Below are positions 5,701 through 58,887 of a stretch of DNA of 64,000 bases, piece after piece. A program made the translations under genes and the position numbers. Source of the DNA: an uncultured Rhodothermales bacterium (GTDB taxonomy: Bacteria; Bacteroidota; Rhodothermia; Rhodothermales; VXPQ01); assembly GCA_965651265.1 (NCBI GenBank), contig CBFGRV010000012.1, forward strand, positions 1,401 through 65,400, given 5' to 3'. The stretch's first letter is position 1. Each line of letters starts with the position of its first letter. The notes under the pieces are model-generated. The model saw only the letters and a program-made list of their open reading frames with translations. It made no database searches and was not told the DNA's origin.

Positions 5701-6604
5701 CTTTGCCGAGGTGCAGCCCAGTCAACTCAGCGTTCGTCAGGAGATGACGGACGACAAGAAGCTCAACGAGAAGCTCCGCAAACTCCTGCGCAACTACCAG
5801 CGGGTCCACAACCGCATCGAAGGGGAAATGAAGCGGGAGAAGCACCAGGTCCAGATGGGTGACGAGCTCCCACCGGGCATCGTGCAGCTTGCGAAGGTCT
5901 ATGTCGCGCGCAAGCGCAAAATCCAGGTGGGCGACAAGATGGCCGGCCGCCACGGAAACAAGGGTGTCGTTGCCAAGATCGTTCCTGTCGAGGACATGCC
6001 GTTCCTCGAAGATGGAACGCCCGTGGACATCCTGTTGAACCCGCTGGGTGTGCCTTCCCGAATGAACCTGGGGCAGATCTTCGAGACGCTTCTTGGCTGG
6101 GCAGGGAAGAAGCTCGGCACTACGTTCGCGTCGCCGATCTTCGATGGCGCTACCATGGATGACATCAATGAGCAGCTCGAGAAGGCAGGACTGCCGGTCG
6201 ACGGACGCGCGCAGCTCTATGACGGCCGCACCGGCGAACCCTTCGACGAGAAGACGACGGTTGGCTACATCTACATGTTGAAACTCAGCCACCTCGTCGA
6301 AGACAAAATCCACGCCCGCAGCATCGGCCCATACAGCCTCATCACCCAGCAACCACTCGGTGGTAAGGCGCAGTTCGGCGGGCAGCGACTCGGGGAGATG
6401 GAGGTTTGGGCACTCTATGCATACGGCGCTGCCCATACGCTCCAGGAGATGCTGACGTACAAGTCAGACGACGTTCAGGGCCGCTCAAAGGCCTACGAGG
6501 CCATCGTGAAAGGTGAGAACATGCCAGAGCCAGGCATTCCTGAAAGCTTTCAGGTGCTCGTTCGAGAGCTTCAGGGGCTGGGACTCGAAGTCAGACTGGA
6601 TTGA
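2771..6604 (+). CDS. rpoB: DNA-directed RNA polymerase subunit beta
   Basis: 1277 aa with hallmark motifs ([41 protein letters not shown]). Contains acidic lineage-specific inserts. Confidence 0.98.
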
Positions 6605-6696
6605 CGAGTACGACGGCAGGCAGGGGCGGCCCGAGCGGACGCCCCCAGCCGCCGCCGATCGTCCGACATTCGACAATCGATATTTGACAGAGCAAT

Positions 6697-11004
<4,308 letters not shown>

Positions 11005-20579: not shown

Positions 20580-21308
20580 ATGAGAGGCTGGGGTCTAGAG
20601 CTATTTACGAGCGCCCTCGACGACTTCGAACGAGCGCAATACCAGATTCTGAGCAATCTGCAGCATGTGCGGCATCAGTTTTCGCACAACCGCATCTATC
20701 CGTACCTGGGCGATCTGGTACGACTTTACGGCACGTTGCAGTCGATCGTGAGCTCCAGTGAGAATCTCCGGGGCGCCCTTCCTGCGAACATCAAGGACGT
20801 TGACCTGGAAGCACAGGAAATCATCTACGAGCAGCCGGAGCTTGAAAGCGATCAAATGCAGGCCATCGAAGATCTCATTCGATGGGCTCTGCCGCACATC
20901 CAAAGCGCCATAGACGAAGGGAAGACAATCTTCGAGTTTGTCGAAAATCATCTGCAAATGGAGGAGGTCGGGATCGTTCCTTCCTACGTGCAGGAGGGGT
21001 ATCTATTCGTTCCGGACCATGAGAAGGCGGAACTGCACGTCCTTCAGTACAATCTGTCCATTTTCATGGGCCCCAATGAAAGGTACCGGAGCCTTCGGAC
21101 CTCGCACGTAAAGAGCATTCCTCAGCGACTGATCAGGCATTCCCCGCAGCGCCTGAAGCTGTCGCTCATGGAGGAGCGTCGCGAGCTTCCCAACCCGGCC
21201 ACCTACAACTTCGATTTCGACCTCGATTTTCCCTACGAGAACACCGTTCTACCCGTCGCGAAGCGGAAGCTCATGCGCTATCTGTTCTCGGACGCCGGGA
21301 CGGCGTAG
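20580..21308 (+). CDS. Hypothetical protein (242 aa), no recognisable domain
   Basis: Clean ORF with a plausible composition and no convincing competing ORF. I recognised no motif. Confidence 0.5.
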   Translation: MRGWGLELFTSALDDFERAQYQILSNLQHVRHQFSHNRIYPYLGDLVRLYGTLQSIVSSSENLRGALPANIKDVDLEAQEIIYEQPELESDQMQAIEDLIRWALPHIQSAIDEGKTIFEFVENHLQMEEVGIVPSYVQEGYLFVPDHEKAELHVLQYNLSIFMGPNERYRSLRTSHVKSIPQRLIRHSPQRLKLSLMEERRELPNPATYNFDFDLDFPYENTVLPVAKRKLMRYLFSDAGTA

Positions 21309-24859: not shown

Positions 24860-25348
24860 TTACTGGCCGGGAATACCTCGATTTTCCGGCTGCTCCAGCT
24901 CCTCAGCGGTCCAGGGATTTCGTCGATCCTCGACCAGCTGCCGCACTGCGGCAACTTCCTCAGCCGTCACGGCGGTGGCGTCATTGTCCCACGATGAACG
25001 AACGTAGGTGAGCAGAGATGCAGCCTCTTCATCCGTGAGAAACGTCTGCCACGGCGGCATCGCGCCACTATAGCGTTCGCCGTTCACCTCGAGTGGTCCC
25101 GTCATCCCGTTGAGAACGATTCGGATGAGTACTCCCTTGTCGTCATTAACCCACTCGGAGCCCGACAGGGACGGAAAGACGCCCGGCACACCGCGCCCGT
25201 TCATTTGATGACATGACATGCACCGCGTCATGTACAGCTCGGCACCGTCTTGGGCGACGGCCCCAGAGGCCGTCAACATTGCGGTTCCGCAGGTCAGAAG
25301 GAAAAGGGTCAGAACGGACCGATGCAGCGACCCCTTGAAATTCCACAT
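24860..25348 (-). CDS. Secreted class I c-type cytochrome
   Basis: Signal peptide, a single CMSCH haem motif and a distal Met candidate in GAMPPW. Starts 4 nt after the stop of the upstream dehydrogenase fusion. Confidence 0.85.
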   Translation of the reverse strand: MWNFKGSLHRSVLTLFLLTCGTAMLTASGAVAQDGAELYMTRCMSCHQMNGRGVPGVFPSLSGSEWVNDDKGVLIRIVLNGMTGPLEVNGERYSGAMPPWQTFLTDEEAASLLTYVRSSWDNDATAVTAEEVAAVRQLVEDRRNPWTAEELEQPENRGIPGQ

Positions 25349-25352
25349 GCCA

Positions 25353-28340
25353 CTACTCCGATGAACTGGTTGACTCGGAAGCAGGAATCCAACGGTATCG
25401 GCTCACGCGTGCATTGGGACCGGCGTCCCAGAAGCCGTCAAATTCCGCCACGTAGACGCTACCGTCCGGGCCCAGTTCCATCGAGATGGGGGCGGTAATG
25501 GTGAGTTGATCGAACGTCTTGATGTCGTGCAAGCGTTTTGCCGGGATGCGCAAGTTTAGCGGCGTGTTCTTGACACTGTTCTCTACATCGCTCTCGAAGA
25601 TGCCATCCTCGACGCTTGCCCACTTGATCCATCGCCGAGCCCAATCGAAGATGAACAGGCGATCCTGGAATACGTCCGGGAATGCACCTGAGCCATCATG
25701 GCGGTAGATGGGGCCCATGGTGGCCGAGCGCCCGCCAGACTCATACGTGTACTCCCACATGGGAGGCACGTAGTCCGGAATATGCTCGGGCCGGATCTCA
25801 TTGTAGAAAAGCCGTCCAATCGAGCGTGGCCAGCCGAAGTTCTCGCCACCGTTTTCGGAGATATTATACTCGTCATAATCATAGACGGCGTCGGGTCCGA
25901 CGACGGCGATGTAGAGGTTGCCGTTCTCCGGGTCGACCTTAAAACGGTATGGATTCCGGAGGCCGTAGGCGTAGATTTCCCACCGGACGCCGGGCTCCCC
26001 GAAGAACGGATTGTCTTTCGGGATCGAGCCGTCTTTGTTGATGCGCAGGATCTTTCCGCGCAGATCCTGAAGGTTTTGTGCCGACCGCTCGGAATCGACC
26101 AGGCGTGACCAGTGATAGTCTTTCAGGTCGTTCCGCTCGAGGAATGCCGAAATCTCCTCCTCTGTGAGCTCCCAGCCGGGTTGAGTTTCCGACATCCCCG
26201 TATCCCCCGTTGAGAGATAAAGCGTCCCATCCGGCCCCCACTCGAGGTCGCCTGCTTGATGACAGCATTGCGGTTCGGTGGGCACGCGAAGTAGGACCTG
26301 TTCGGAGGAGAGGTCGAGTTGCCCATTTCTGAATTCGAACCGGGACAGCGTGTTGATGAACGTGACCGGCTCGGCGTAATACAGGTAGACGTACGGCTCG
26401 CCGTCGTAGAAATTCGGGTCGACTTCGATGCCGTAGAGCCCGTGCTCGATCTTGAAGGGATCGGTCGTTTCTATGTGAGCAATCTGCCGGGTCTCGCCCG
26501 TCGAGGCATCGTATAGATGCACTTTTCCGCGGAGTTCGGCGATCCAGACATTTCCGCGCTCGTCGATAGCAATATCATCCGGCCAGACGTTCTCCGACAG
26601 GATCTCGTAGGATCTCGTGCGGATTTCCGGCATCTCGATCCGTCCAGCGGCCATCCGCATACCCTGCAGAAGATGAGTCATGAAGGATGGCGTCGTCCAC
26701 ACGTCATCGAAGTGGCCGAGCTTCGTATAGAATACCCGGCCGCCATCGTGCTCTCGTATCCAGGAAATCGGATAATCGTTCGCGGTGAAGTCCGCCGGCC
26801 CCTCATCGATGCCGACGCTGCTCATATCGAGGGAAGCAAGTACGTGAGAGTTCCACCGAGGATTGGCGTCGAGCACGTAAATTTCGTCACGAATCCAGAA
26901 GCTGTCGCCGAAATGGGCAACGGTTGGATCGTCCGGCTCCTCGACGAGAATCCGCACGCTCTGAGTCCACGGGTGTTCGCGGAACAGGCCGCCGCCAACC
27001 ATCTCGCGATACCAGTTCCACTGATAGAAGGCATCCAGGCCGGCATGGGCCCCCACGATGCCCTTTCCAGAGCGCAGGAAGTTCTGAACGGCCGTGCGCT
27101 GCGCCTCTGTGACGCCGCCGGCGGTGCCCTGCGTCGGGGCGGCGTTTGTCCGCTCCGCGACGACATCCGTGCTGCCCAGATCGGCGGTCCAGCGGCTCGT
27201 GAAGCGGCTATCGGTGAGTTGTCCCTCTACGCGGATCGTGCCGTAGCCCTCCGCTGGAAAGCTGAAACTCAGGGAAGGCTGGGAATAGACGATATTCTCC
27301 AGAGGGATAGCCGGCGCTCCCGATCCGAACTGCACACTGCCGCCTGGTGTTGCGTCCAGGCCTGTGAACGTCATTGTGCCCGAAACCGGACCGGAGGGAG
27401 TTTGCACCGTGAATTGGTAGGTGGGGTCTTGCGACTCCGTGGCACCGGCTTCCTCTACGTTGCCTTCTACGCGAAGTGTCGAGTTGGCGAAGAAGAGCAA
27501 GTCATATTTAGCCAGGTTCTCGTCGTTGAGCTGTGTGAGGTCTTCCGTGATATCAAATTCGAACTCCGTCGTCGCGCCGATCTCAGGCAAGATCTTGTGG
27601 ATGGTCTCGATGGACTGATGGCGATATCCGTGAGTAGTCGTGACCACGAGCACGTTGATCGGCTCGCGAGGTTCACTCACCGCGACGTATTCGGCCAGGC
27701 TGTTGTACGTGGTACCGGGTGCCGTGGGCAGGACGCGAATGTTGCGAAACCAGACTCGTGACGCATCATCATGGTTCTGGAGGCCTACGTAGCCCTCGAG
27801 TGACCGATCTCCGAAGAAGTCATTGACCTTTTCGCCATTCAGGAAAATCTGGTAGTGCTGACCGGCTACCTCGATTCGATACGTATTCCACTCTCCTGCG
27901 GGTTTGGAAGCGAGCCGAAACGGCGCCGAGAAGTCGTAAATGGCACCCGTTTGGTGTACCGGATCCTGGCCGTTGTCGATCTGAATCTCATAGCCGGTGT
28001 TGACGGCGTACCACGGATCGGGCGCATCAGGGAATCGAACGAACACGCCCGAGTTCGTGCTATCGGTCTCAACCTTCCATTCCAGCTCGAGGATGAAATC
28101 CTTGAACTGCCGATCGGCATAGTAAAACAGTCCCATGCCGCCATGGCTGAGCATGCTGCCGTCGGCCTCGAGGCTGAAACTGCCGGGACCAGACATCTGC
28201 CAGCCGTCGAAATTCGTTCCATCGAAAAGCGTGATCCACTGATCGCCGCCCACCGTTGTCGTTTCGCGAGGGCCGGAGCATCCGGCGAGCACGGAGCCAG
28301 TGAGAAACAGGCAAAATGTGGCGAGATAAACCCTTTTCAT
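25353..28340 (-). CDS. Lipoprotein fusion: DUF1080 (3-keto-disaccharide hydrolase-like) + ThuA-like + PQQ-type glucose/sorbosone dehydrogenase beta-propeller
   Basis: Lipobox MKRVYLATFCLFLTGSVLAGC, so the ATG at 28340 is preferred. DUF1080-like region: DGWQMSGPGSF...FILELEWKV...NSGVFVRF...YEIQIDN...GLQNH. ThuA-like region: INVLVVTTTHGYRHQSI...DLLFFANST ... GIVGAHAG...REHP...ISWIREHDGGRVFYTKLGH. Propeller region: IAIDERGNVWIAE...HGLYGIEVDP...GDLEWGPDGTLYLSTGD...GKILRI..DGSIP.DNPF...YAYGLRNPYRF. Confidence 0.8.
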   Translation of the reverse strand: MKRVYLATFCLFLTGSVLAGCSGPRETTTVGGDQWITLFDGTNFDGWQMSGPGSFSLEADGSMLSHGGMGLFYYADRQFKDFILELEWKVETDSTNSGVFVRFPDAPDPWYAVNTGYEIQIDNGQDPVHQTGAIYDFSAPFRLASKPAGEWNTYRIEVAGQHYQIFLNGEKVNDFFGDRSLEGYVGLQNHDDASRVWFRNIRVLPTAPGTTYNSLAEYVAVSEPREPINVLVVTTTHGYRHQSIETIHKILPEIGATTEFEFDITEDLTQLNDENLAKYDLLFFANSTLRVEGNVEEAGATESQDPTYQFTVQTPSGPVSGTMTFTGLDATPGGSVQFGSGAPAIPLENIVYSQPSLSFSFPAEGYGTIRVEGQLTDSRFTSRWTADLGSTDVVAERTNAAPTQGTAGGVTEAQRTAVQNFLRSGKGIVGAHAGLDAFYQWNWYREMVGGGLFREHPWTQSVRILVEEPDDPTVAHFGDSFWIRDEIYVLDANPRWNSHVLASLDMSSVGIDEGPADFTANDYPISWIREHDGGRVFYTKLGHFDDVWTTPSFMTHLLQGMRMAAGRIEMPEIRTRSYEILSENVWPDDIAIDERGNVWIAELRGKVHLYDASTGETRQIAHIETTDPFKIEHGLYGIEVDPNFYDGEPYVYLYYAEPVTFINTLSRFEFRNGQLDLSSEQVLLRVPTEPQCCHQAGDLEWGPDGTLYLSTGDTGMSETQPGWELTEEEISAFLERNDLKDYHWSRLVDSERSAQNLQDLRGKILRINKDGSIPKDNPFFGEPGVRWEIYAYGLRNPYRFKVDPENGNLYIAVVGPDAVYDYDEYNISENGGENFGWPRSIGRLFYNEIRPEHIPDYVPPMWEYTYESGGRSATMGPIYRHDGSGAFPDVFQDRLFIFDWARRWIKWASVEDGIFESDVENSVKNTPLNLRIPAKRLHDIKTFDQLTITAPISMELGPDGSVYVAEFDGFWDAGPNARVSRYRWIPASESTSSSE

Positions 28341-28393
28341 AACGCAACAATTCAGCTGCGGCGTTCGACGAACTTCCATGGGGCCGGCCCCGG

Positions 28394-29278
28394 TCACTCC
28401 TGGATGAAGCCGGCATATCCGGCATGCTGGAGGGCCGTTTCGAGGCCGCCCTCCATCTGGACCGGTTCGACGGAGCCGTTCCCATCGACATCGACGCCCT
28501 TCAGCGCCTTTTCGAGGAGGGCGGTCATCGCAGCCGCATGCTCTCGCGCCAGGTCGAGGTCCGTTCCATAGTCGGTCTTGAGGATATTGAGCGCCTGCGC
28601 GTAGGCCTCGAAGAGCCAGCCGGTGTCAGCTGTGGACATCCAGAACTCGATGGGCGCATCCCATTCACGGGTGAGGTCGACGCGGGGTTGCCGCTCGGCT
28701 TTGGTTACGCCATCGTCCATCTTCATCCAACCGATGACATTGTTGAGAGATGTGATGATGTGCTCGCCATGCGTACGAACGGACTCTGAAGCGGAGCCGT
28801 CCTCCAGGTGGTTCTCGATGAGGAGGCGGACGTGCCGCCCACGCCCAACGATCCCGAGTTGAGATGGATCTGTGACCTCGGGCGGTCCGGATTCATAACG
28901 GGCAGCGAACGCCGTGTCAAAGTCGGCGGGGGTGACCTGCCAGCGAGTTTTCCATCCGTGGACCTGTTCGGCTCCGCGCGCGCGCGGGTCGGCAAGACCT
29001 GAAGGCAGGCCCCACACAGTCCTGAAGACGGCATCCGCGTGCATCTTCAATTGCGGTAGATCGGGAGCCGTCTCAGCCTTTCGGCTGGCCTCGAGGGCCT
29101 GTTGGGCTAGTTCTCGAATTTCGTTCAGGTAGGTGCCGATCTCACTAGACTGAGCGAAGGAGAGAATCGGCGTGCCGCCAGCGAACAACATCAAGAACAT
29201 CGAGGCGACGACCAGGCGACGATCGACGGCTCTCGAGAACGAGCTACGGCGAGAGCGGCGGTGGAGTTCAGACATCAA
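28394..29278 (-). CDS. Secreted hypothetical protein (294 aa), first gene of the oxidoreductase operon
   Basis: N-terminal signal sequence (LVVASMFLMLFAGGTPILSFAQS). The rest looks mostly helical with no recognised domain. It sits 53 nt upstream of the lipoprotein fusion on the same strand. Confidence 0.55.
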   Translation of the reverse strand: MMSELHRRSRRSSFSRAVDRRLVVASMFLMLFAGGTPILSFAQSSEIGTYLNEIRELAQQALEASRKAETAPDLPQLKMHADAVFRTVWGLPSGLADPRARGAEQVHGWKTRWQVTPADFDTAFAARYESGPPEVTDPSQLGIVGRGRHVRLLIENHLEDGSASESVRTHGEHIITSLNNVIGWMKMDDGVTKAERQPRVDLTREWDAPIEFWMSTADTGWLFEAYAQALNILKTDYGTDLDLAREHAAAMTALLEKALKGVDVDGNGSVEPVQMEGGLETALQHAGYAGFIQE

Positions 29279-29393
29279 CGTCCAGTTGTTTTTTTGAACA
29301 AACGCTCAAGGTACTCAAAGGCGAATTACTTCGTCTACTCAATATTGCGACTCGAGCGAACACGCAGTAGCGCGAGGAGGGGGGTCATGCGAT

Positions 29394-35650: not shown

Positions 35651-36484
35651 ATGGAGGAGCAAATTCTGGAAAGGCTCATCAGGGAATTCTCGGCGCGCGG
35701 AAACGTTGCCGCGGGGCGTGCCGACGAGATTGCGCGTAGCCTGGGTACGAGCGCTTCCATCGTTGAACTGGACCGTGACGGCGCTCCGGCGCCTGACGCG
35801 GAAGGGCTCGCCGCGATGATCGATCACACGGCGCTGAAGCCCGAAACCACCCCGCAGGACGTGGAGCGGCTGTGCGAGGAGGCTGCCTACTACGGATTTG
35901 CGTCCGTTTGCGTGAATCCGTGTTACGTTCCACTCGCTGCTCGTCTGCTTGCCGGCACGTCCGTGGCCGTCTGCAGCGTGGTGGGCTTTCCACTGGGAGC
36001 CAGTCGATCGAGTATCAAGGCGCGCGAGTCGGAAGCGGCGGTCGCCGACGGAGCACATGAGATCGACATGGTCCTCAACGTAGGAATGCTCAAGAGCCGG
36101 CACTTCGATTACGTAGAGGCGGACATACTCTACGTCGTGGAGTCAGTGGGCGAGGGTATCATAACGAAAGTCATTCTTGAGACGGCGCTGCTCACCGATG
36201 AGGAAAAGGTGGCTGGATGCATGCTCGCTCGTCGCGCCGGAGCCTCCTTCGTGAAAACGTCCACAGGATTTTCGAAGGGCGGGGCCACGGTTGCCGACGT
36301 TGCACTGATGCGCCGAGTCGTTGGCGATTCGATGGGCGTCAAGGCCGCCGGAGGGATCCGAACCGCTGCTGATGCCAGGGCCATGATCGCCGCCGGCGCC
36401 AACCGAATCGGTGCCAGCTCCTCGGTGGCTATCGTGGGGGGAACCGCGCGCGAGACGGCCAGGGGCGGATCTTCAGAATATTGA
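35651..36484 (+). CDS. deoC: Deoxyribose-phosphate aldolase
   Basis: IDHTALKPETT, SVCVNPCYV, VVGFPLGA, EIDMVLNVG and the Schiff-base Lys in FVKTSTGF. Close to Thermotoga-type DeoC along its whole length. Confidence 0.88.
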   Translation: MEEQILERLIREFSARGNVAAGRADEIARSLGTSASIVELDRDGAPAPDAEGLAAMIDHTALKPETTPQDVERLCEEAAYYGFASVCVNPCYVPLAARLLAGTSVAVCSVVGFPLGASRSSIKARESEAAVADGAHEIDMVLNVGMLKSRHFDYVEADILYVVESVGEGIITKVILETALLTDEEKVAGCMLARRAGASFVKTSTGFSKGGATVADVALMRRVVGDSMGVKAAGGIRTAADARAMIAAGANRIGASSSVAIVGGTARETARGGSSEY

Positions 36485-38696: not shown

Positions 38697-39815
38697 TCAC
38701 CCGTTCTTTTGCAGCATCATCGCAGCTGCATGCACTTCTTCCACGAACCGCTTCGTCTTCTCGCGAAGGTGCTCGCCGGCCTCCAGCAGAGAGCCACCGA
38801 CAAGCAGAATGGAGTCCACGCCGAAGAAATGTACGAGTTCGGAGGCGCGGGCCGCATCCATCCCGCCTGCAGGGACAGGGAATGCCGGCTTGACGTGCAT
38901 CCAGTCGGCGCGAAGCCTGGTTGCGATCTCTGCGCACACGTCGGCCGCGTAGGAGAACCGGCCCCCATAGTTTGCGAAGATGACGGCATCGGCGCCGAAA
39001 AGCCGGAACAGCTTACCGAAGAGCGTGGAGGGCCGGATGTTGTTTGATCCGCTGAAGCTGGGATGGGCAATGACCGGTACGGTGAGCTCGGTGCGGCACA
39101 GCTCGTGAAGCGTCGGCAGACCGGTGAGCATCGGCGCGATCATGACCGCGCGAACGCCCAGGGCCTGAGCCGTTTCCGCCTGGCGACGGATCGTATCGGG
39201 AGAGCCTGATAGGTTAGGGACATACAAGACCCGATGTCCGGAATTCGCATAAACTTGCTCGGCAACCTCCAGGCACGCCCGCACGCGCTCCCCGAAGGGC
39301 GCAAACGACTGGTCGGCCAGATAGTGGTCATCCTTGATGATGTCGATGCCGGCGTAGGCCAGTTCGCGGAATAGATGGGCGATCTCCGATGTGGATAGGC
39401 CGATCGGTTTGAGTGCACTACAAGTCAGAGGGCGCCCGGTCACGCCAACCATGTCCCGGATCCCATTTATTCCAAAGGTGGGACCGGGGAGGAAGCCGGC
39501 CATCGCGCCCGGCAAGTCGAAGTCCTCGAGTGAGATATGCGAATGAAGCGACGAATTGCCGAACAGGACGTTCAGGAACTGGGCCGGGTCGCTCTCGACG
39601 CCGCGAACGGGAAGGGACAGGACCAACTCGTAGTGCCCATTAGAGATCGGCTCGAGTCGTTCTATCTGTCCCATCATATGATGGCGAACGAATGGATATC
39701 TAAGTCCGACCGATCGAGGCGTTTCGGTGGTCTGCTCGAGCAGAACAGCCTCGGCGACGGCTTCGACCTTCTCCTGAGGAGCTTCAAGGCAGTACGTTAC
39801 CCGAAAATAATCCAT
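38697..39815 (-). CDS. RuBisCO large-subunit-like protein (form IV RLP)
   Basis: 372 aa, collinear with RbcL: LFGNSSL, LEDFDLPGA..FLPGPTFGI.GIRD..GVTGRPLTCSALKPIGLS, IIKDDH, VIAHPSFSG, PVPAGG, LLVGGS. Several carboxylase residues are absent, and there is no small subunit or CBB gene nearby. Confidence 0.85.
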   Translation of the reverse strand: MDYFRVTYCLEAPQEKVEAVAEAVLLEQTTETPRSVGLRYPFVRHHMMGQIERLEPISNGHYELVLSLPVRGVESDPAQFLNVLFGNSSLHSHISLEDFDLPGAMAGFLPGPTFGINGIRDMVGVTGRPLTCSALKPIGLSTSEIAHLFRELAYAGIDIIKDDHYLADQSFAPFGERVRACLEVAEQVYANSGHRVLYVPNLSGSPDTIRRQAETAQALGVRAVMIAPMLTGLPTLHELCRTELTVPVIAHPSFSGSNNIRPSTLFGKLFRLFGADAVIFANYGGRFSYAADVCAEIATRLRADWMHVKPAFPVPAGGMDAARASELVHFFGVDSILLVGGSLLEAGEHLREKTKRFVEEVHAAAMMLQKNG

Positions 39816-40397: not shown

Positions 40398-41180
40398 TCA
40401 CGGATGGACCGGATCGATGTGGATTGCTGCATTCACGGCTGCTCCAACGATCCCCGCGTCATTTTCCAGCCTGGCCGTCAGGATCTGTGCTTTCGTGCTG
40501 AGCAGATGTAGATACTTCTCCGACTTGTTCGGCTTGCTGACCCCGCCACCCAGAATGAATGTGTCAATGTCAAAGAGCCGCTCGAGGTGGGCAAGATAGG
40601 CCTGTACACGCTGTGCCCATTCCTGCCAGGTGAGCCGCTCGACTTTTCGCGCGCGATCCGACGCATAATGTTCGGCTACCATGTTGTTCAGAAATAGGTG
40701 ACCGAGCTCGGTGTTCGGCAACAACACGCGATCTACGAAAATGGCTGACCCGATTCCCGTTCCGAAGGTGAGCAGCATCACGACACCGCGCAGCTCGCGG
40801 CCGCTGCCGAACTCCATCTCCGCGACCGCGGCCGCGTCTGCATCGTTGAGTACTACGAATGGGCAGCCGGAACGGTCGCGAAAGAGCTCGGCGACGTTCT
40901 TCTCCAGCCACTCATCGGAGATATTCGCAGCCGTTAGTGCAACCCCTTGCTTGATCTGTGCGGGAAAACAGCATCCGACAGGCCCTGTCCACTCGAAATG
41001 CCGAACGAGCCGTGCGACGGTTTCGGCCACGGCGTCCGGCTCGGCATTGGGCGGAGTGCTCAGCCGATAGCGTTCAGCCGTCAACTGGCCAGTTTTCACG
41101 TCAACGGGTGCGCCCTTTATGCCCGAGCCGCCAACGTCGATTCCTAGTATTTCCACATCAGAGGTGTGATCTTGGAGCAC
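40398..41180 (-). CDS. ppgK: Polyphosphate glucokinase (ROK family)
   Basis: [31 protein letters not shown] is the typical PpgK N-terminus, followed by a ROK core. I prefer the GTG at 41180. The track start (GTG at 41270) would add a 30-aa Arg/Cys-rich extension that looks non-coding. Confidence 0.78.
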
Positions 41181-41319
41181 GCCGTGCTCCTGCAAGTTTA
41201 AACGTCGGCATTTCCGGACGCAAGGACACGCCGGCTGGCGTCGCCCACTCTCAGACGCCGGCGACCCCACTAGATGTCTCCATCCCGAAAGCGATTAACC
41301 CCTAACGATCGACTGTAAT

Positions 41320-46146: not shown

Positions 46147-46767
46147 ATGACGCATTTTGCCAAGATACGAGACATCGTGAAAGTCAATTCGGGACAACGG
46201 ATGAACGAGGGAGCGAGCTTAGAACCTGGACTGGAAGAAGTCGCCATCGATCGCGAGCGGGTTGCGGAGCATCTTACGACGCTTCGTGAGCTCTCCTGGG
46301 GAAAAAGGGGACGCGTTGCGGCGCTAATAGAGACACCTCAACCGCATCGGCATGTGATGCGGACGACGGTGCAAGTGATCAAAGGAAAGGGATTCGCCGG
46401 CGATCATGAAAAGAAGTCTTTCTACCGGGGCGCCCTCGTTCCAGGCCGAGAGGTCACAGCCATCTCGGCAGAGGTGCTTCGAACGCTAGGAATCGCCCAT
46501 CATGTCGTCGGCGACAATTTGATCACAGAGGGGATTGACCTGGCCTTACTGGAGCCGGACGACTCACTGGAGGTCGGCGAAGTACTCCTGCGGAGAAGCG
46601 AGAGGCCGCATCGCCCGTGTCGAACATTTCGCGATCGAACGAGTCCGGAGGCCTTCGCCGTCGTGGCACGATACGGATATCGAGGGGCCCTCTTCGTCGT
46701 TGAGCGTGAAGGCACGATCACGGTTGGCGACCCCTTGACGATCGTTCCGGCTCAACCCTCGGTCTGA
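46147..46767 (+). CDS. MOSC domain-containing protein
   Basis: GDNLITEGIDL...GEVLLRRSERPHRPCRTF carries the conserved MOSC Cys. The start is uncertain: ATG at 46147 or 46201. The track start, a TTG at 46108, overlaps the divergent gene's ATG. Confidence 0.7.
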   Translation: MTHFAKIRDIVKVNSGQRMNEGASLEPGLEEVAIDRERVAEHLTTLRELSWGKRGRVAALIETPQPHRHVMRTTVQVIKGKGFAGDHEKKSFYRGALVPGREVTAISAEVLRTLGIAHHVVGDNLITEGIDLALLEPDDSLEVGEVLLRRSERPHRPCRTFRDRTSPEAFAVVARYGYRGALFVVEREGTITVGDPLTIVPAQPSV

Positions 46768-48662
46768 CCTAGAGGAAGCGGCGAGAGCGGCCGCGCCTCG
46801 AAACGCTGACTACCGCGAACAGCGCGGAGGACGTCTGCGAGCTTATCGAAAACATTCGATTTCCAGATTCGCTCATGCGTCTTGATGACTTCCAGCTGCA
46901 TGCGACGATACAGGGTCGGATTGGTCTTAGCCAGCTCCTCGAATTTGTCGACCAGATACGCTAACCGATCGCGATACTCTCGGGTGAAGCCGAAGTAAGC
47001 GATATCGTTCACTAGCTGCTGATACTGGCGGTCCCAGAGGGTTATTTCGGCTGGATCGGGCCGGCCGTAGGTATTCTCGTCATAACGGAAGGATCTGTCG
47101 TCATCCAACACGTTCATTCCAGCTGCTTTGAGCGCTTCGGGCGCCCCAGGTGGCAGGAAAAAGCGTACTGCGATGCCCTTCACGTCCGCCGTGAGGCGCA
47201 GGTCGGCATTTGGCTTTACGCTGGCATCTTCTGAGCCACCAGCCGGAAGCGCAAAGTGCTTATTCAGCTTTCTGAATTTGTTATATAGCGTCAGCCCTTC
47301 CGTATCCGGACCCCAATCGAATTCCTGGCCAGATGCCGCGAGCGTGCGGAGCAGATCGCTCAAGAACAGACGTTCTCCGGGCCGCAGTTGAACGCGGACC
47401 GTCCGCAGAGATTTAGACGGATCCACGGGAATTGACTCTGTCGCACGCAGTGCTCCATAGGCAGATGCGACGTAGCCTCTTGAGTAAGACTTAAAGCTGG
47501 AGTTGCGTGAAACGTGATCGTATCCCTCGGTGACGGCCCACATGTAGGCGTCCATGACGGTCGTTTCCGGTGTGAACCGGTTCGGCTCGGCCGTGAGAAA
47601 CATCCGGTAGACCGAATAGATGTTGCCCGGCCCCGTGTGATAGGCCGACAATCCAGGGATCTCGTGGCCCACGGCGTTGACGTACCCGGCAGCCGTAACG
47701 AAGGCCGGCTCCATCGTCAATAGAGGGTGCCACTCTTCGTAGACGTCGATGGCATTACCGGCAGCGGTAGGGAGCTTATAGTGATGGATGCCATTCTGTC
47801 GGAGCACGTATGGCATCATCTGGTAGCGACTTCGCGCCCCAACCGGCGATACGAGCCGGTCGTCATTGAACGTCTCGACGGTCCCGATTTCCGTCGTCAG
47901 AAGGCTTAGGCCCAGGAATCGGGCCAACTGCACTTCATATTCGATAAATTCAGCCTCGCGCTCACGGGCCTCGAGCACCTGATTTCGTCGACCCCATTTG
48001 ACGGTGACGGCCCCGCGGGGTATCCCGCGAGCCACATATTTCTGCACCAGGTTTCTCGTAGCGTCGCGACGCAGCCGATCGATTCGCCCCCAGTCCCAGC
48101 TCTCACCTTCCGAGCGGTTTTCATACGCAGACCGTTCGTCTTCAAACTCGTAGATCTCGAGAAGCTCGTTCGTTCGGTTGTCGACCACGCGGATGGTGAA
48201 GTTGTCGTCGGTACCCTGTCGCTCCGCGTAGAGATCTAGAAGGTTGCGAAACTGATGAATGACATTCTGCGATGCCGCTGACTCCTCGGACAGGATCGGA
48301 CCTGCCGTGTAGGGCCGGAAGAGCACGTCCGGGTGAAGATCGGAACCCTCGAACGTAAAGAGCCCGGCTCCGGAAGACGATGGCCGTTCAAGGACGGGCA
48401 GATCAGACTCCGTTACTCGTTCAGTCGGCCCAAAAATGCGAAACAAGTCACGAGCCAGAGATTCCAGGCCCCCGGAGATGGTGATCAGGATGAGCAGTGC
48501 GAAGATGGCCACGAGCGACGCCCACAATACCTTCCGCCGCGATGTTTTCGGCGGTAGGGAGTCTTCCATGGCTGCGGGCGAGCCAATATGCTCACTCCCG
48601 TTCTGGATTTCGAACCCGGAACGCTCAGTACTTCTTTCTTTCTCCGGCTGCATCTCCATCAT
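46752..48662 (-). CDS. Membrane-anchored protein with a lytic-transglycosylase (SLT/GH23)-like core
   Basis: N-terminal TM (VLWASLVAIFALLILITI). VETFNDDRLVSPVGARSRYQMMP resembles the SLT motif ES.FNP.AVSPAGA.GLMQLMP, and LSAYHTGPGNI resembles AYNAGPGNV. Confidence 0.6.
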   Translation of the reverse strand: MMEMQPEKERSTERSGFEIQNGSEHIGSPAAMEDSLPPKTSRRKVLWASLVAIFALLILITISGGLESLARDLFRIFGPTERVTESDLPVLERPSSSGAGLFTFEGSDLHPDVLFRPYTAGPILSEESAASQNVIHQFRNLLDLYAERQGTDDNFTIRVVDNRTNELLEIYEFEDERSAYENRSEGESWDWGRIDRLRRDATRNLVQKYVARGIPRGAVTVKWGRRNQVLEAREREAEFIEYEVQLARFLGLSLLTTEIGTVETFNDDRLVSPVGARSRYQMMPYVLRQNGIHHYKLPTAAGNAIDVYEEWHPLLTMEPAFVTAAGYVNAVGHEIPGLSAYHTGPGNIYSVYRMFLTAEPNRFTPETTVMDAYMWAVTEGYDHVSRNSSFKSYSRGYVASAYGALRATESIPVDPSKSLRTVRVQLRPGERLFLSDLLRTLAASGQEFDWGPDTEGLTLYNKFRKLNKHFALPAGGSEDASVKPNADLRLTADVKGIAVRFFLPPGAPEALKAAGMNVLDDDRSFRYDENTYGRPDPAEITLWDRQYQQLVNDIAYFGFTREYRDRLAYLVDKFEELAKTNPTLYRRMQLEVIKTHERIWKSNVFDKLADVLRAVRGSQRFEARPLSPLPLGQTEG

Positions 48663-55414: not shown

Positions 55415-57592
55415 GTGCTCCTCTGGCCGGTCCCGTTGCTGGGCATTCTCCACGCGGAGTCATCGGCTCTCGTCGCGACCGTCGCGTTTTTTGGGGCAGG
55501 ATCCACGTCTCGGTCGATGCTCAGATCAGGCATCACACTTCCCCAAGTAATAGTCCTCCAGGAATCGGCGCTACTTATCCCCTGGCTTCTCCTTACGATG
55601 AGCGCGATTTGGCGGCCGAACTGTGGATACATGCAGGGGCTCATGCTCTACATATTGTTTGCGGGGATATCCGTCTTGCTGGCCGTCGCCCTCATGAGTT
55701 TTCTCTTGGAGGCGCATGAGCGCAGTTCACACAGAGTCTTCTGGGTAGTTGGGATTTTAATCGGCGTGCTTCCGCCACTCTACGACATCGGATTTCATCC
55801 TCAATTTTATACCTACAATCATGTTTTCGGCGGGGTGCTGGGTCCCATCTATGATGAACAGCTTGCCATTCGGCCGGGACTCTTTGTCTTTCGACTCTTG
55901 ACCCTGCTTTGGGTGGGATTTCTGCTTCTTTTGAGGCGCTTATTGCGTGACAATCGAGGGACGGTCCTCATCGGGTTCGTCGCGCTTCTGATCGGGGCTG
56001 CCTATGCGCAGCCTGCAGAACTCGGATTTGTGACGACCCGGGATAAGCTCAGGAGAGCCCTTCCCGGCACCCGCTTGACGGATCATTTCGAGATCCGGTA
56101 CGATCCACGTGTGATCTCGGATACTGAGATATCGCAGATAGCGGGAGACCACGAATTCCGTTACGAACAGATGAGTCGCCGCCTGCAGGAGACCGTCTCG
56201 GGCAGAATCGAGACGTACATCTACCCAGACCCGGAGGTGAAAGCGCGACTCACGGGGGCGCGATACACGAACATTGCACCCATCTGGCTGGATGAGCCGC
56301 AGATCCACATACTATACGCTTCTTACGACGACGTATTCGCCCACGAGCTCGCCCACGTATTCTCACGAGAATTCGGACTGCCGTGGCTTCGCGCGTCCAT
56401 TGCCGTAGGCCTGATCGAGGGGCTCGCCGTTGCCCTCGAGCCTCCCGACGGCCGACCTACCCCGAGCGAGCAGATGTCGGCGGATCTTCTGGCATCCTCT
56501 GACGAAAGAGACGCCCTCAAACAGGTTCGCGAGCGGGCCAGCGCCGTTGCCAGGCGCCTGGATCCAGTCCGCTTCTGGACAGGTCGCGGTGCCGTTTCGT
56601 ACACCTCGATGGGGTCGTTCGTCGAATACCTGCTGGCTGCGTATGGACCGGAGCGTTTGAAGAAGGCTTATGCGTGTGCCGATTTTCGGGGCGTTTATGG
56701 TAAGTCGGCGGGTGAGCTCGCACAGGAATGGAGTCAACATGTATTGAGCCTTCCGTGGGTGAGTGCATCGGCGCGGGATCACGTGAGGAGACGATTTGTG
56801 ATTCCGTCGTTGTTCGAGAAGCGATGTCCTCATTTCGTTTCGGCGCACGAGCGCCTTTATGAGCGCGCTGCGATCGCTCTCCTCCGGCGCGACTCGCTGG
56901 CTGCGGAGACACACGCCGAGGAAGCGCTGCACCTCAGGCCCGACCATGTGCCGTCGCTCGAGCTCTGGACCGGCCTCCAGCTTGAGCGGGGGAGTGCTCA
57001 TGAGGTGCTTGAACGCATAGCCCTCGCCGATCTGGATTCAATCTCCGCTACGCTCTATCTAAGGCTGGGAGATGCATATGCCAGATTGGGCGACGCTTCT
57101 CGTGCACAAACCAACTACCGTTCTGCCCTGGCGAGACTTCCCAGCCACGCCATTGAGTCGCGAAGCCGGATCCTGCTTCGGTATCTGGCCACGGATTCCG
57201 TCGCAGGCGTGTACGCTAATCAAGGTCTCGAGGCGTTGCGAGCCTGGAGAAAGGAACGTTACGAACAGGCCTTTGCGCTCATGCGTACTATTCCTCCAGA
57301 TGCATTCGAGCCCGAGACTATTGCGGCACACGGCTTCTCGGGGGACAGTCCAGCGGCCATTGGCGCGGAGATATCTCGCCGCCGATGGGTCTGGCTCGCG
57401 AGACTTGCATACTACAACGGGCACTACGACGACGCCGCCGCCTTTGCGGATAGCGCCAGGGCTGCATATGTGCAGATCGGCGCCTTCAACGAAGCCGCCG
57501 TGCAGCGGGATTGGCGGGACCGTGCGCAGTGGTCCGCCGTTCGCGGGATGGGACAGCTGGCCGCCATGGGTATCATGCGAGAAGACACCTGA
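55415..57592 (+). CDS. Polytopic membrane protein with a peptidase-MA-like HExxH domain and C-terminal TPR-like repeats
   Basis: Roughly 6 N-terminal hydrophobic segments. FAHELAHVF...GLIEGLAV fits the Peptidase_MA_2 pattern (HExxH ... EGlA). The C-terminal helical repeats look TPR-like. GTG start. Confidence 0.6.
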   Translation: MLLWPVPLLGILHAESSALVATVAFFGAGSTSRSMLRSGITLPQVIVLQESALLIPWLLLTMSAIWRPNCGYMQGLMLYILFAGISVLLAVALMSFLLEAHERSSHRVFWVVGILIGVLPPLYDIGFHPQFYTYNHVFGGVLGPIYDEQLAIRPGLFVFRLLTLLWVGFLLLLRRLLRDNRGTVLIGFVALLIGAAYAQPAELGFVTTRDKLRRALPGTRLTDHFEIRYDPRVISDTEISQIAGDHEFRYEQMSRRLQETVSGRIETYIYPDPEVKARLTGARYTNIAPIWLDEPQIHILYASYDDVFAHELAHVFSREFGLPWLRASIAVGLIEGLAVALEPPDGRPTPSEQMSADLLASSDERDALKQVRERASAVARRLDPVRFWTGRGAVSYTSMGSFVEYLLAAYGPERLKKAYACADFRGVYGKSAGELAQEWSQHVLSLPWVSASARDHVRRRFVIPSLFEKRCPHFVSAHERLYERAAIALLRRDSLAAETHAEEALHLRPDHVPSLELWTGLQLERGSAHEVLERIALADLDSISATLYLRLGDAYARLGDASRAQTNYRSALARLPSHAIESRSRILLRYLATDSVAGVYANQGLEALRAWRKERYEQAFALMRTIPPDAFEPETIAAHGFSGDSPAAIGAEISRRRWVWLARLAYYNGHYDDAAAFADSARAAYVQIGAFNEAAVQRDWRDRAQWSAVRGMGQLAAMGIMREDT

Positions 57593-58887
57593 TGAAAGGA
57601 TTTAGGCAGTGGATCGTCGCGATCGTCGCTTTGGTGGTCGTTTCCGGATGCGCCACCTCGGAGGAAACTGAGGGTGGACGAAGTGCCGGTCCACGTGCCG
57701 CACTCAACAGGACGGGTTACGTCGAATTAGACCTCGCTGCCGCCGAAAACACCGTCCGATCCATCCAGCTATACCGGGGTGAGGAGCACCAGCTCCCGAT
57801 TTTGTCCCTGCGCACGAACGATCGGCTCACGCTCGAGTTCGATATCCTTGTTGAGGATGGTCGTCCGCTCTCCGCTTACTTTTATCATGCAGATCGCATT
57901 TGGCGGCGTGATCTGACACCGAGTCAGTACCTCGAATCCTATCAACACGACAACATCCTCGATTATCAGATCTCAACGGGGACGCAAGTGCCGTATGTGC
58001 ACTACACGTACCGATTTCCGAACGAAAACATCGAGTTCCTGATCAGCGGCAACTACATCATTCGGGTCACCGAGCAGGGCGATGAGGAGGCCATTCTATT
58101 TGAACGTGCGTTCTTTGTGACGGAGCAGGCGACGGCGCTGGATTTAGTCACGGATCGTGTACTTGTAGGAGGCTATGGATTCCCCTTCATCCAGCCCATC
58201 GCTGAATTCGTGCCTGCCCCAGGGACGGAAGGCGGCGTATTCGATTACAATGTCTGCTTCGCCCGAAACGGCCGATTCGATCTGGCACGCTGCTCCGATC
58301 GCCCCTCCATGATGAATGCACCACTCATGCAGTTCTATCTGGAGCCGGAGACATCATTTGAGCCCGAGGCCGCACCGTACTTTCTCGATCTGGCCAATCT
58401 GAGAGCATCCAATCAGATTGTCTCGGCAGACTTTACGACGAGTCCGTTCCGTGTAGAGCTCGAGCCGGACTACGCGGCATTTGGCGGTTCTGGCCTTGCC
58501 CAGCCCCTCGACGGGCAGCCGATCATATCGTCCGTGCTTCCGATCGGCGACGGCGATGTGCGGGGTGAATACGTGCAAACCCGCTTCGTCTTCGTGCCGC
58601 CGAATGAGCGGCGGCTGGCGGGCGACGTACTTGTCACCGGGAGCTTCAACGGATGGCGCTACGATCCGGCGAATCGCCTCGAGTGGGTGCCCGACAATAG
58701 GCGCTATGAGGGAGAGATACTGCTCAAGCAGGGGCACTACGAGTACCGCTACGTCTCGCGGGATCGGCGTGCGCTGCAGCAAGCGATGCCGCAGGCGAGT
58801 AGTCAGCTGCTTGCCTTCGTTTACTATGACGATCCGAGCCTGCAGACGGACCGACTTCTCGCCGTGAAGCAAACCATCGCACAGTAG
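57592..58887 (+). CDS. DUF5103 (type IX secretion plug-like) lipoprotein with a C-terminal CBM48/AMPK-beta-like module
   Basis: Lipobox MKGFRQWIVAIVALVVVSGC. IRSIQLYRGE..LPILSL...LTLEFD..YFYH(A)DRIWRRDL...SGNYIIRV is the typical DUF5103 pattern. The C-terminal module reads VTGSFNGW...GHYEYRYV. The ATG overlaps the upstream stop as TGATG. Confidence 0.7.
   Translation: MKGFRQWIVAIVALVVVSGCATSEETEGGRSAGPRAALNRTGYVELDLAAAENTVRSIQLYRGEEHQLPILSLRTNDRLTLEFDILVEDGRPLSAYFYHADRIWRRDLTPSQYLESYQHDNILDYQISTGTQVPYVHYTYRFPNENIEFLISGNYIIRVTEQGDEEAILFERAFFVTEQATALDLVTDRVLVGGYGFPFIQPIAEFVPAPGTEGGVFDYNVCFARNGRFDLARCSDRPSMMNAPLMQFYLEPETSFEPEAAPYFLDLANLRASNQIVSADFTTSPFRVELEPDYAAFGGSGLAQPLDGQPIISSVLPIGDGDVRGEYVQTRFVFVPPNERRLAGDVLVTGSFNGWRYDPANRLEWVPDNRRYEGEILLKQGHYEYRYVSRDRRALQQAMPQASSQLLAFVYYDDPSLQTDRLLAVKQTIAQ

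Follow-up and report, generated by a model that had tools for sequence, protein, structure and literature searches.

What is the role of a membrane-anchored protein that joins a DUF1080 domain, a ThuA domain and a dehydrogenase-like propeller in one chain, and that is encoded between a secreted helical protein and a cytochrome c? The question is raised by three co-directional open reading frames in the window, the whole 64-kb stretch of DNA analysed here, which all lie on the minus strand, as do the features described below. Gene 1 encodes the secreted protein up294, of 293-294 aa (28394..29275 from an ATG, up to 29278 from a TTG; open reading frame and translation). Gene 2 encodes a lipoprotein of 995 aa (25353..28340, start MKRVY), in which DUF1080, a ThuA domain with an inserted beta domain and a six-bladed propeller of the glucose/sorbosone dehydrogenase (GSDH) type follow one another, and gene 3 a periplasmic class-I mono-haem cytochrome c of 162 aa (24860..25348). 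A spacer of 53 nt separates genes 1 and 2, and 4 nt separate the stop of gene 2 from the start of gene 3; these coordinates and spacers, which had been given in a sequence-only reading of the locus, match exactly when the sequence is re-read. Genes of 293, 995 and 162 aa were also called independently in three other metagenome assemblies. The extracytoplasmic location claimed for the products holds, with a lipobox on the fusion and two signal peptides. Scans for consensus promoters and terminators gave counts equal to the shuffled expectation. The neighbours in the window are housekeeping genes, from which nothing can be learned about the substrate; a search of the 64 kb for pqq or sugar-utilisation genes found none.

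The three-gene unit is real, widely conserved and uncharacterised. How often the triple fusion and the gene order occur had been left to a survey, which shows that both are common and not rare. Homologues of the fusion number more than 1,500, and all three domains are present in 113 of the best 120. DUF1080, claimed earlier as a part of the module, is missing in 7 of these 120, so that it is optional and lies outside the invariant core, which is formed by up294, the ThuA-propeller fusion and the cytochrome. The proposed order up294-fusion-cytochrome is conserved in about 95% of the usable loci, which belong to Rhodothermales, Gemmatimonadota, Verrucomicrobiota and Gammaproteobacteria MAGs. Carriers of the module include the closed Rhodothermales chromosomes OZ246975.1, OZ220686.1 and OX638318.1. 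The three domain identities proposed for the fusion were also confirmed, by Pfam matches and by agreement of the AF2 model (pLDDT 79.7 for the 995-aa chain) with PDB structures, and nothing that the sequence-only reading had named as speaking against it was found.

The propeller occupies residues 574-986 (25383..26621) and matches Pfam GSDH (PF07995) with an E value of 2.4e-36 and 126.1 bits against a cut-off of 25. Foldseek comparison of the AF2 model with the PDB gives 1QBI (2.1e-17), 2ISM (TM 0.82) and 3A9G (TM 0.83) as related folds. Of the soluble PQQ sugar dehydrogenases, 1C9U/1QBI is the sGDH of A. calcoaceticus, 2G8S is YliI/Asd of E. coli, and 2ISM and 3A9G come from T. thermophilus and P. 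aerophilum, respectively. The predicted Ca ligands are present, and the PQQ ligands probably in part. In HMMER alignments the catalytic H144 of sGDH corresponds to H694, R228/N229 to R795/N796, and G247/P248 of the Ca site to G815/P816, all of them invariant in 32 homologues. In a MAFFT alignment, K377 and R406 correspond to K906 and R936, which are both invariant; these two equivalences are probable, and weaker than the others because HMM alignments fail to reach the C-terminal blades. R408, Q231 and Q246 are not conserved, and the position of R408 is variable (H, N or T). The catalytic His belongs to an invariant Cys692-Cys693-His694 (26259..26267), with His694 equivalent to His144 of sGDH. 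Only ThuA-GSDH fusions have this vicinal Cys pair, and Cys-Cys-His is absent from sGDH, YliI, 2ISM and 3A9G. Tethered to the membrane, the propeller would act as a quinoprotein-type dehydrogenase, with PQQ as putative cofactor together with Ca or another metal, and would oxidise a sugar hydroxyl.

Family models place the propeller less narrowly. It scores 86.9 bits against a cut-off of 434.55 in TIGR03606 (NCBIfam, glucose/sorbosone family PQQ-dependent dehydrogenase), far under the threshold, and the fusion is therefore not filed in that narrower subfamily. The PVC-type haem-binding CxxCH families are likewise not reached (TIGR02604, 28.3 against 122.2 bits; TIGR02603, 21.6 against 68.15). 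These scores bear on another explanation, in which the propeller has no quinoprotein chemistry and is a non-catalytic or otherwise cofactored scaffold, as in HHIP or the PVC-type CxxCH proteins, while the cytochrome serves another reaction, for example at the His, Asp and Glu residues of ThuA, many of which are invariant in the homologue alignment. The low TIGR03606 score, the weak TIGR02604 match, the non-conserved R408, Q231 and Q246 and the lack of visible pqq genes in the window would all fit a scaffold, but the invariance across phyla of the catalytic His, the Arg-Asn pair and the Gly-Pro Ca site argues against it, and we consider it improbable. PQQ auxotrophs with functional apo-enzymes are also known: E. 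coli does not synthesise PQQ, and its YliI is annotated as an aldose sugar dehydrogenase.

The cytochrome matches PF00034 (2.4e-13) and PF13442 (1.8e-11) and has the features of class I, which are a single CxxCH, a GAMPPW distal Met motif and an N-terminal hydrophobic leader; its haem-binding motif is CMSCH at residues 43-47 (25208..25222), read from sequence. That it is dedicated to the fusion, as had been claimed, is well supported. In 21 of 22 usable loci its gene follows that of the fusion directly, the two genes are translationally coupled or overlapping (they overlap in L006 and L028), and a cytochrome c is fused at the C-terminus in nine of the best 120 homologues. The free cytochrome of the window has 49% identity with the fused domain of one of these, P0047 (E 3e-33), and the nine variants are a Rosetta-stone link between propeller and cytochrome. 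The co-translated mono-haem cytochrome c would take up the electrons of the propeller and hand them on, by a presumed route, to a terminal oxidase. The unit probably feeds electrons from an extracytoplasmic sugar or glycoside oxidation into respiration.

ThuA (PF06283; E 3.4e-48, 165.1 bits against a cut-off of 33.4) is matched in two stretches. The N-terminal part comprises residues 226-292 (27465..27665; split Pfam match and AF2 secondary structure) and the C-terminal part residues 410-564 (26649..27113), the best Pfam stretch being 386-562, which covers profile positions 46-207. Foldseek relates the domain to 4JQS (6.3e-9) and 4E5V (6.2e-8). Between the two parts lies an eight-stranded beta domain of about 96 aa (residues 304-399, 27144..27431; AF2 strands 307-397), modelled with a pLDDT of about 80-87 and flanked on either side by low-confidence linkers. 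The interruption of ThuA by this domain is a detail absent from the sequence-only reading. A Pfam search with the inserted domain gave no match even at E 10; the homologues P0066 and P0074 lack the domain, and in P0016 and P0043 it has roughly double the length. When it is excised, ThuA aligns in one piece, over 91-100% of the length and with 27-39% identity, to the best stand-alone ThuA proteins.

ThuA is known from the ThuAB system, in which it is paired with a dehydrogenase (PMC8121099), and similar pairings are seen elsewhere: ThuA is followed by a Gfo/Idh/MocA gene on a Chondrinema plasmid, and it adjoins a Zn-ADH in L025. Orthology to the ThuA of the thuEFGKAB operon is not supported, as the best plasmid ThuA matches have less than 40% identity, and no thuB-like or ABC transporter gene was found near the module within the window. 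By comparison with ThuA/ThuB of rhizobia, the fused ThuA would be the dehydrogenase's permanent companion, required for forming or handling a keto-sugar, which is its putative role here.

The fusion has an N-terminal signal peptide with the lipobox LAGC (MKRVYLATFCLFLTGSVLAGC, 28278..28340, read from the sequence), and G-C-[AS]-G recurs in most homologues. The DUF1080 or 3keto-disac_hyd jelly-roll (residues 34-203, 27732..28241) matches PF06439 with an E value of 4.5e-44 and 151.2 bits against a cut-off of 26.8, over profile positions 1-186 of 187. Its Foldseek matches include BT2157 3OSD (6.6e-12), 8TDA (2.1e-11) and 8RR2 (1.9e-11), and identity to BT2157 is 28% over the fold. Q188-x-H190 aligns with the Q-x-H of 8RR2, taken to be the sugar ligands Gln273/His275 of BT2157; the domain is shorter than BT2157, and the loop expected to hold the Lys245 ligand is absent. 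BT2157 acts on 3-keto-glycosides (PMC8121099; 10.1101/2024.03.25.586180), and the DUF1080 domain would cleave and hydrate a 3-keto-glycoside in the same way.

Taken together, the three genes would form one extracytoplasmic redox unit for sugar oxidation, with a membrane-tethered propeller and a cytochrome, whose substrate is most likely a glycoside oxidised at C3, in which ThuA helps to form or handle the keto-sugar and DUF1080, where present, cleaves it; we hold this reading to be evenly balanced between right and wrong. The earlier claim of a 3-keto-glycoside oxidation and cleavage machine is plausible, but a 3-keto product of the propeller is putative, as are its substrate and its regiochemistry. 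To our knowledge, the characterised bacterial GSDH-family enzymes all oxidise C1 of aldoses, not C3. The propeller could be an aldose (C1) dehydrogenase like sGDH and YliI, with identical catalytic residues, which turns free or released reducing sugars into lactones and gives the electrons to cytochrome c. DUF1080 and ThuA would in that case be modules for binding or pre-processing, or would act on keto-sugars made by another enzyme; the DUF1080 fold also serves as a carbohydrate-binding module, and CBM66 is among the Foldseek matches.

Gene neighbourhoods keep C1 oxidation alive. A gluconolactonase-like SGL gene lies closely 3' of the cytochrome gene in eight related loci (L012, L013, L014, L018, L023, L028, L029 and L030), directly after it except in L028, where it is one gene further, and the SGL clusters hold other candidate 3-dehydrogenases, namely an 8-bladed PQQ quinohaemoprotein and a Gfo/Idh/MocA enzyme. 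The SGL gene lies, however, between the cytochrome and a second PQQ dehydrogenase, for which it could work instead, and no lactonase gene was found in the window or in its closest relatives L001, L002 and L004. Oxidation at C1 also leaves the invariable ThuA fusion unexplained, and the Q-x-H sugar-ligand motif of the lyase/hydratase DUF1080 is kept. We regard C1 oxidation as rather unlikely.

Further neighbours in related loci are sugar transporters, Gfo/Idh/MocA, a xylose-isomerase-like TIM barrel, stand-alone DUF1080 genes, sulfatases and a PQQ quinohaemoprotein paired with DUF1080, and one variant of the fusion, P0074, bears a CBM6. The contexts with CBM6, sulfatases and sugar transporters suggest glycans of exogenous origin. 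They speak against a biosynthetic or remodelling role, in which the periplasmic substrate of the unit would be an endogenous envelope metabolite, cyclitol-like or prenylated, or some other polyol not taken from the diet, and not a nutrient glycoside. That role is suggested by L026 and L027, in which a complete eboA-F cluster lies immediately beside the module, with a second ThuA-GSDH-PKD-CBM6 paralogue after it that has Cys-Cys-His as ECCHTGG, since ebo has been connected with periplasmic export of precursors (PMC6282210). A weak match of the propeller C-terminus to the ScyE family (E 1.4e-4) and a ThuA protein suggested, though not from a direct biochemical test, to take part in the breakdown of the iminosugar 1-deoxynojirimycin (PMC11494336) are in line with it, as is a polyprenyl synthase gene two genes upstream in the window, whose conserved synteny is nevertheless confined to the closest Rhodothermales relatives. 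The ebo adjacency was rejected as a general context, being found in one lineage only, in one of about 30 contexts, and an envelope metabolite is very improbable as the substrate.

No account of the fusion came up in the literature, which was searched for ThuA together with PQQ and cytochrome c and for ThuA-like proteins in general. The statement that no such system had been described stands for experimental work, of which none was found, but the architecture is common in databases, under names such as ThuA domain-containing protein, and a six-bladed PQQ propeller with an adjacent mono-haem cytochrome c has been described in silico in a bioRxiv preprint of 2026 (10.64898/2026.07.10.737718). In that work, six-bladed PQQ propellers of Bacteroidetes and adjacent mono-haem cytochromes c551 are modelled as electron-transfer pairs that lead to a terminal oxidase. 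A six-bladed PQQ-type propeller beside a periplasmic mono-haem cytochrome c is common to both, but those propellers are AA12-like and single-domain, and neither a ThuA/DUF1080 fusion nor a conserved upstream helical protein is mentioned.

Soluble PQQ sugar dehydrogenases (sGDH 1C9U/1QBI, YliI/Asd 2G8S, 2ISM and 3A9G) share the fold, the periplasmic location and the His, Arg-Asn and Gly-Pro Ca site. While sGDH reduces cytochrome b562 or quinone, the propeller described here, which is the C-terminal third of a lipoprotein and is fused to ThuA and DUF1080, has a dedicated c-type cytochrome as electron partner; it differs further by Cys-Cys before the catalytic His, by the missing R408, Q231 and Q246 and by its place under the TIGR03606 cut-off. 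In fungal AA12 pyranose dehydrogenase CcPDH (AA8 cytochrome b-AA12 propeller-CBM1; PMC4332668), too, a six-bladed PQQ propeller is joined in one molecule with a cytochrome and, as in some variants, with a carbohydrate-binding module. CcPDH is eukaryotic, its cytochrome is b-type and N-terminal, it has no ThuA or DUF1080 and its propeller is of another subfamily.

Other systems resemble the unit in their logic. LacABC, a periplasmic FAD dehydrogenase with a small subunit and a cytochrome c that works with DUF1080 (PMC9007349), is likewise three-component and cytochrome-c-linked and follows the same order of oxidation and cleavage. Its dehydrogenase is a GMC flavoprotein and not a PQQ-type propeller, its DUF1080 is separate and not fused, and its LacB is unrelated to the third component found here. 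The BT2156-BT2160 or AL1-AL4 pathway of gut Bacteroidota has a homologous DUF1080 (BT2157) with the Q-x-H motif and a periplasmic or lipoprotein location, and its oxidation is made by Gfo/Idh/MocA enzymes with tightly bound NAD, which need a keto-sugar as re-oxidant (PMC8121099; 10.1101/2024.03.25.586180). In the unit, by contrast, a respiratory cytochrome would take the electrons, and a TIM-barrel lyase is absent from the window. In Sinorhizobium and Agrobacterium, ThuA/ThuB form 3-keto-trehalose, and ThuA is there also obligatorily coupled to a sugar dehydrogenase, which is a separate Gfo/Idh/MocA protein instead of a fused propeller; the ThuA described here additionally carries the inserted beta domain.

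Only recently has the cleavage of glycosides by oxidation, elimination and hydration via 3-keto sugars been recognised as a route beside that of the classical glycosidases. The known Gfo/Idh/MocA oxidases of this route stall because their bound NAD(H) needs re-oxidation, and a periplasmic enzyme that gives electrons to cytochrome c would lift this bottleneck and yield energy, while a lyase/hydratase in the same chain would provide channelling of the reactive keto-sugar. As it occurs broadly in Rhodothermales and in further environmental phyla, the unit may have a part in the carbon turnover of soils, sediments and saline habitats. Its functional significance is drawn from genomes, and the unit is a well-supported candidate for experiment and not a demonstrated mechanism. 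The fusion family also offers a handle on the function of ThuA and on the secreted up294 family, which has about 300 clusters and no detectable relatives.

In a wider and doubtful reading, ThuA-propeller fusions with Cys-Cys-His, along with their obligatory helical partner and cytochrome c, would be respiratory glycoside (C3) dehydrogenases of a class so far unrecognised, with a vicinal disulfide near the cofactor. If this were true, the vicinal disulfide, also present in 8-bladed methanol/alcohol dehydrogenases, would have arisen convergently as a means of electron transfer to cytochrome c. In ThuA one would have the long-sought partner, catalytic or coupling, that sugar 3-oxidation needs; up294 would be either a subunit with a new fold or a chaperone for a metal or cofactor, and would act through its EF-hand-like loop; and non-Koshland glycoside cleavage would be coupled directly to the respiratory chain.

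The protein up294 was described in the sequence-only reading as secreted and without recognisable domain, in agreement with its N-terminal signal peptide and with Pfam and NCBIfam searches, which gave no match even at E 10. It is mainly helical and has near its C-terminus a conserved EF-hand-like loop, D-x-N-x-N-G...MEGG. A sequence search of the PDB gave no match, and neither did comparison of its AF2 model (pLDDT 83.5) with PDB folds, where the best E value is 0.6. A possible Tat motif in the copy of the window (RRSSF, DRRLVV) was rejected, as it is not conserved among homologues. The 300 homologues, counted as clusters, are all unnamed or "hypothetical"; the family alignment has 44 invariant columns, and the gene lies upstream of the fusion gene in 19 of 20 usable loci. 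This always-present protein may be a third subunit or a maturation factor, possibly involving its Ca-type metal loop. From 1.84 billion representatives, a family profile retrieved no more than 87 proteins, of which the remoter ones match in the C-terminal helix-loop-helix only, in unrelated architectures without annotation. Among the profile matches are an apparent fusion of a sulfatase with up294 and another of a xylose-isomerase-like TIM barrel with the C-terminal half of up294, each of which may be a gene-calling artefact.

The three genes form a real, conserved and functionally coherent unit, a variation on known kinds of system and not a new category. In the window they lie co-directionally on the minus strand, exactly at the coordinates of the sequence-only reading. 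Gene 1 (28394..29275 from its ATG) is an ORF for a helical protein of 293 aa, gene 2 (25353..28340) encodes the 995-aa fusion lipoprotein, which starts with MKRVY and has an L-A-G-C lipobox, and gene 3 (24860..25348) encodes a cytochrome c of 162 aa with one CMSCH. Spacers of 53 nt (gene 1/gene 2) and 4 nt (gene 2/gene 3) separate them, and the carboxyltransferase gene downstream of the cytochrome gene is convergent, so the unit stops at the cytochrome. The 118-nt gap 5' of gene 1 (29276-29393) could hold a promoter of its own; a sigma-70 consensus scan of this gap gave no match. The neighbouring genes in the window have housekeeping roles (rpoBC, beta-oxidation, a polyprenyl synthase and a DNA polymerase), and the closest Rhodothermales relatives (loci L001, L002, L004 and L020) share the synteny polyprenyl synthase, MBL-fold hydrolase, unit and convergent carboxyltransferase. 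The same 293/995/162 aa trio is also called in three independent metagenome assemblies.

The DUF1080, ThuA and GSDH domains proposed for the fusion are all supported by Pfam and by Foldseek comparison of an AF2 model with the PDB. The Pfam matches are 3keto-disac_hyd (DUF1080) at residues 34-203 (E 4.5e-44), ThuA in two separate stretches (E 3.4e-48) and GSDH (E 2.4e-36); for the cytochrome they are PF00034 and PF13442. The model, built with 32 homologues as input (pLDDT 79.7, pTM 0.74), places the propeller near sGDH (1QBI, 2e-17), 2ISM and 3A9G (TM 0.82-0.83), the DUF1080 domain near BT2157 (3OSD, 6.6e-12; 8TDA, 2.1e-11; 28% identity) and ThuA near the ThuA-like 4JQS (6e-9). It also reveals an eight-stranded beta domain inserted in ThuA (residues 304-399), which the sequence-only reading had missed and which has no match in Pfam. 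When this insertion is excised, the ThuA halves align contiguously with the closest-matching stand-alone ThuA proteins (27-39% identity).

Homologues of the fusion number 1,509 at E < 1e-10 and are labelled by NCBI as "ThuA domain-containing protein" or "family 16 glycoside hydrolase". Among the best 120, DUF1080, ThuA and GSDH are all present in 113 and DUF1080 is absent from seven; nine carry a fused C-terminal cytochrome c, about a quarter have extra PKD domains and two an extra CBM6. The ThuA insertion varies by lineage, being absent, ~100 aa or ~200 aa long. Gene order was compared in 23 loci on one-genome-per-species contigs, mostly from Rhodothermales MAGs, with Gemmatimonadetes, Limisphaerales and Gammaproteobacteria. 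The helical-protein gene is upstream of the fusion in 19 of 20 usable loci and the cytochrome gene accompanies the fusion in 21 of 22, the locus L016 being a true exception without cytochrome. Since the variants without DUF1080 also retain both partners, the invariant core is the helical protein, the ThuA-propeller and the cytochrome c. The free cytochrome of the window resembles the fused cytochrome domain of the homologue P0047 (49% identity, E 3e-33), a Rosetta-stone argument for its being the redox partner of the enzyme. At L020, a Rhodothermales MAG, the fusion gene (6001-8154) has a frame change and lacks residues ~609-883, including the catalytic His; the helical-protein gene is missing and the cytochrome gene is kept. 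Either this copy is decaying or the assembly is faulty here.

The cofactor site of the propeller was compared with a provisional sGDH reference sequence, checked at the key numbered positions and over part of the chain. In the HMMER alignment His144 (the catalytic base), Arg228-Asn229 and Gly247-Pro248 (Ca ligands) correspond to H694, R795-N796 and G815-P816, respectively, all invariant in the family. The HMM alignments end near residue 850, so the C-terminal equivalences, taken from MAFFT, are less certain: the invariant K906 and R936 fall at Lys377 and Arg406; Arg408, Gln231 and Gln246 have no conserved counterpart, and His stands in place of Gln76. The fusion scores far under the NCBIfam PQQ-subfamily cut-off, which places it in the broad GSDH family, outside that subfamily. 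Immediately N-terminal to His694 are Cys692-Cys693 (window 26259-26267, minus strand), which every one of the 32 aligned homologues has and which sGDH, YliI, 2ISM and 3A9G lack. In 8-bladed methanol and alcohol dehydrogenases, a vicinal disulfide beside PQQ is important for passing electrons to cytochrome c, and Cys692-Cys693 may be a suggestive parallel to it.

To our knowledge, characterised DUF1080 members act on 3-keto sugars only. BT2157 breaks down 3-keto-trehalose (PMC8121099) and is assigned as a 3-keto-alpha-glucoside 1,2-lyase as well as a 3-keto-2-hydroxy-glucal hydratase, which contacts the sugar through Gln273, His275, Lys245 and a metal (10.1101/2024.03.25.586180). Q188-x-H190 of the window's domain aligns with the Q-x-H of 8RR2, which is taken, by matching spacing and not by numbering, as the putative Gln273/His275 pair. 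The window's domain is shorter than BT2157 and is without the loop where Lys245 should sit.

Eight loci (L012, L013, L014, L018, L023, L028, L029 and L030) have an extended cluster, with not all genes in each. The unit is preceded by a creatininase-family protein and, before that, by an unknown protein of 156 aa; after the cytochrome come an SGL/gluconolactonase-like protein, then an 8-bladed PQQ quinohaemoprotein and finally a stand-alone DUF1080. L028 has in addition a Gfo/Idh/MocA protein, a TIM barrel of xylose-isomerase-like type, three sulfatases and a further ThuA-GSDH-PKD-cytochrome protein, and sugar transporters occur at L030. Such surroundings speak for carbohydrate oxidation, and in them periplasmic dehydrogenases are repeatedly paired with DUF1080. 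The unit is probably periplasmic and sugar-oxidising, reducing its own cytochrome c. The more specific reading first proposed, oxidation and cleavage by way of 3-keto-glycosides, is a serious possibility which falls a little short of being probable. Its main rival, oxidation of aldoses at C1 by the propeller, stays live because of the lactonase-like gene in the extended clusters.

Related arrangements are known. LacABC, a periplasmic cytochrome-linked dehydrogenase with DUF1080, is established genetically (PMC9007349), and in fungal CcPDH a cytochrome and a CBM are linked to a six-bladed PQQ propeller (PMC4332668). Six-bladed PQQ propellers and neighbouring mono-haem cytochromes c have been modelled as electron-transfer pairs in a 2026 preprint without mention of ThuA or DUF1080 (10.64898/2026.07.10.737718). 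ThuA is known together with a dehydrogenase in ThuAB (PMC8121099), a pairing that recurs on a Chondrinema litorale plasmid (L033, 4645-9643), where a ThuA-domain protein adjoins two Gfo/Idh/MocA-type oxidoreductases; at L025 (3784-5536) another adjoins a Zn-ADH gene. The ThuA proteins of these two loci are stand-alone or larger forms. This suggests that ThuA in general partners sugar or alcohol dehydrogenases. Literature searches returned nothing published on either the ThuA-propeller fusion or the helical protein. The attraction of the unit lies in the latter as an obligatory partner, in the Cys-Cys-His motif and in the prospect of finding what ThuA does.

The helical protein has 300 homologues, every one unnamed or "hypothetical", and no match in Pfam or NCBIfam. 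In its alignment 44 columns are invariant, many of them Trp, Gly, His or Asp. The family carries ordinary Sec signal peptides; Tat export was rejected, the Tat-like motif of the window's copy not being conserved. The AF2 model is confident and mostly helical (pLDDT 83.5), with no significant PDB neighbour (best Foldseek E 0.6). Only 87 proteins among 1.84 billion representatives match its profile, the remoter ones covering just a helix-loop-helix at the C-terminus, with D-x-N-x-N-G as the loop; that this EF-hand-like loop handles metal is speculation. Its strict linkage to the unit suggests a subunit or maturation factor, and it shares its position, not its sequence, with small third subunits found in other periplasmic dehydrogenases. 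Two of the profile matches are apparent fusions, either real or merged gene calls: P0244 (755 aa) joins a sulfatase to the full helical protein, and P0250 (515 aa) joins its C-terminal half to a xylose-isomerase-like TIM barrel, of the family of the BT1/AL1 3-keto-beta-glucoside lyases.

In L026 (13935-23024) and L027, which carries the homologue P0044, a full eboA-F cluster (EboA, TatD, UbiA, DHQ-synthase-like, a 404-aa protein and a phosphodiesterase) is directly 3' of the unit; after it comes a second paralogue, ThuA-GSDH-PKD-CBM6, in which Cys-Cys-His (ECCHTGG) is likewise present. This association was absent from the window and the other loci examined, and belongs to one lineage. Elsewhere in the window, ORFs of 242 aa (20580-21308, plus), 636 aa (46752-48662, minus) and 725 aa (55415-57592, plus) have no Pfam match; a type-9-secretion plug-domain protein (57511-58887) is encoded just downstream of the last. 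A 372-aa RuBisCO-large-chain-like protein (38697-39815, minus) matches Pfam weakly and is probably a RuBisCO-like protein. Close to it are an aldolase of DeoC/LacD type and a ROK-family protein (other coordinates 35651-36484, plus, and 40398-41270, minus), and these genes may form a small pathway for sugars or methylthio-sugars that has no relation to the unit.
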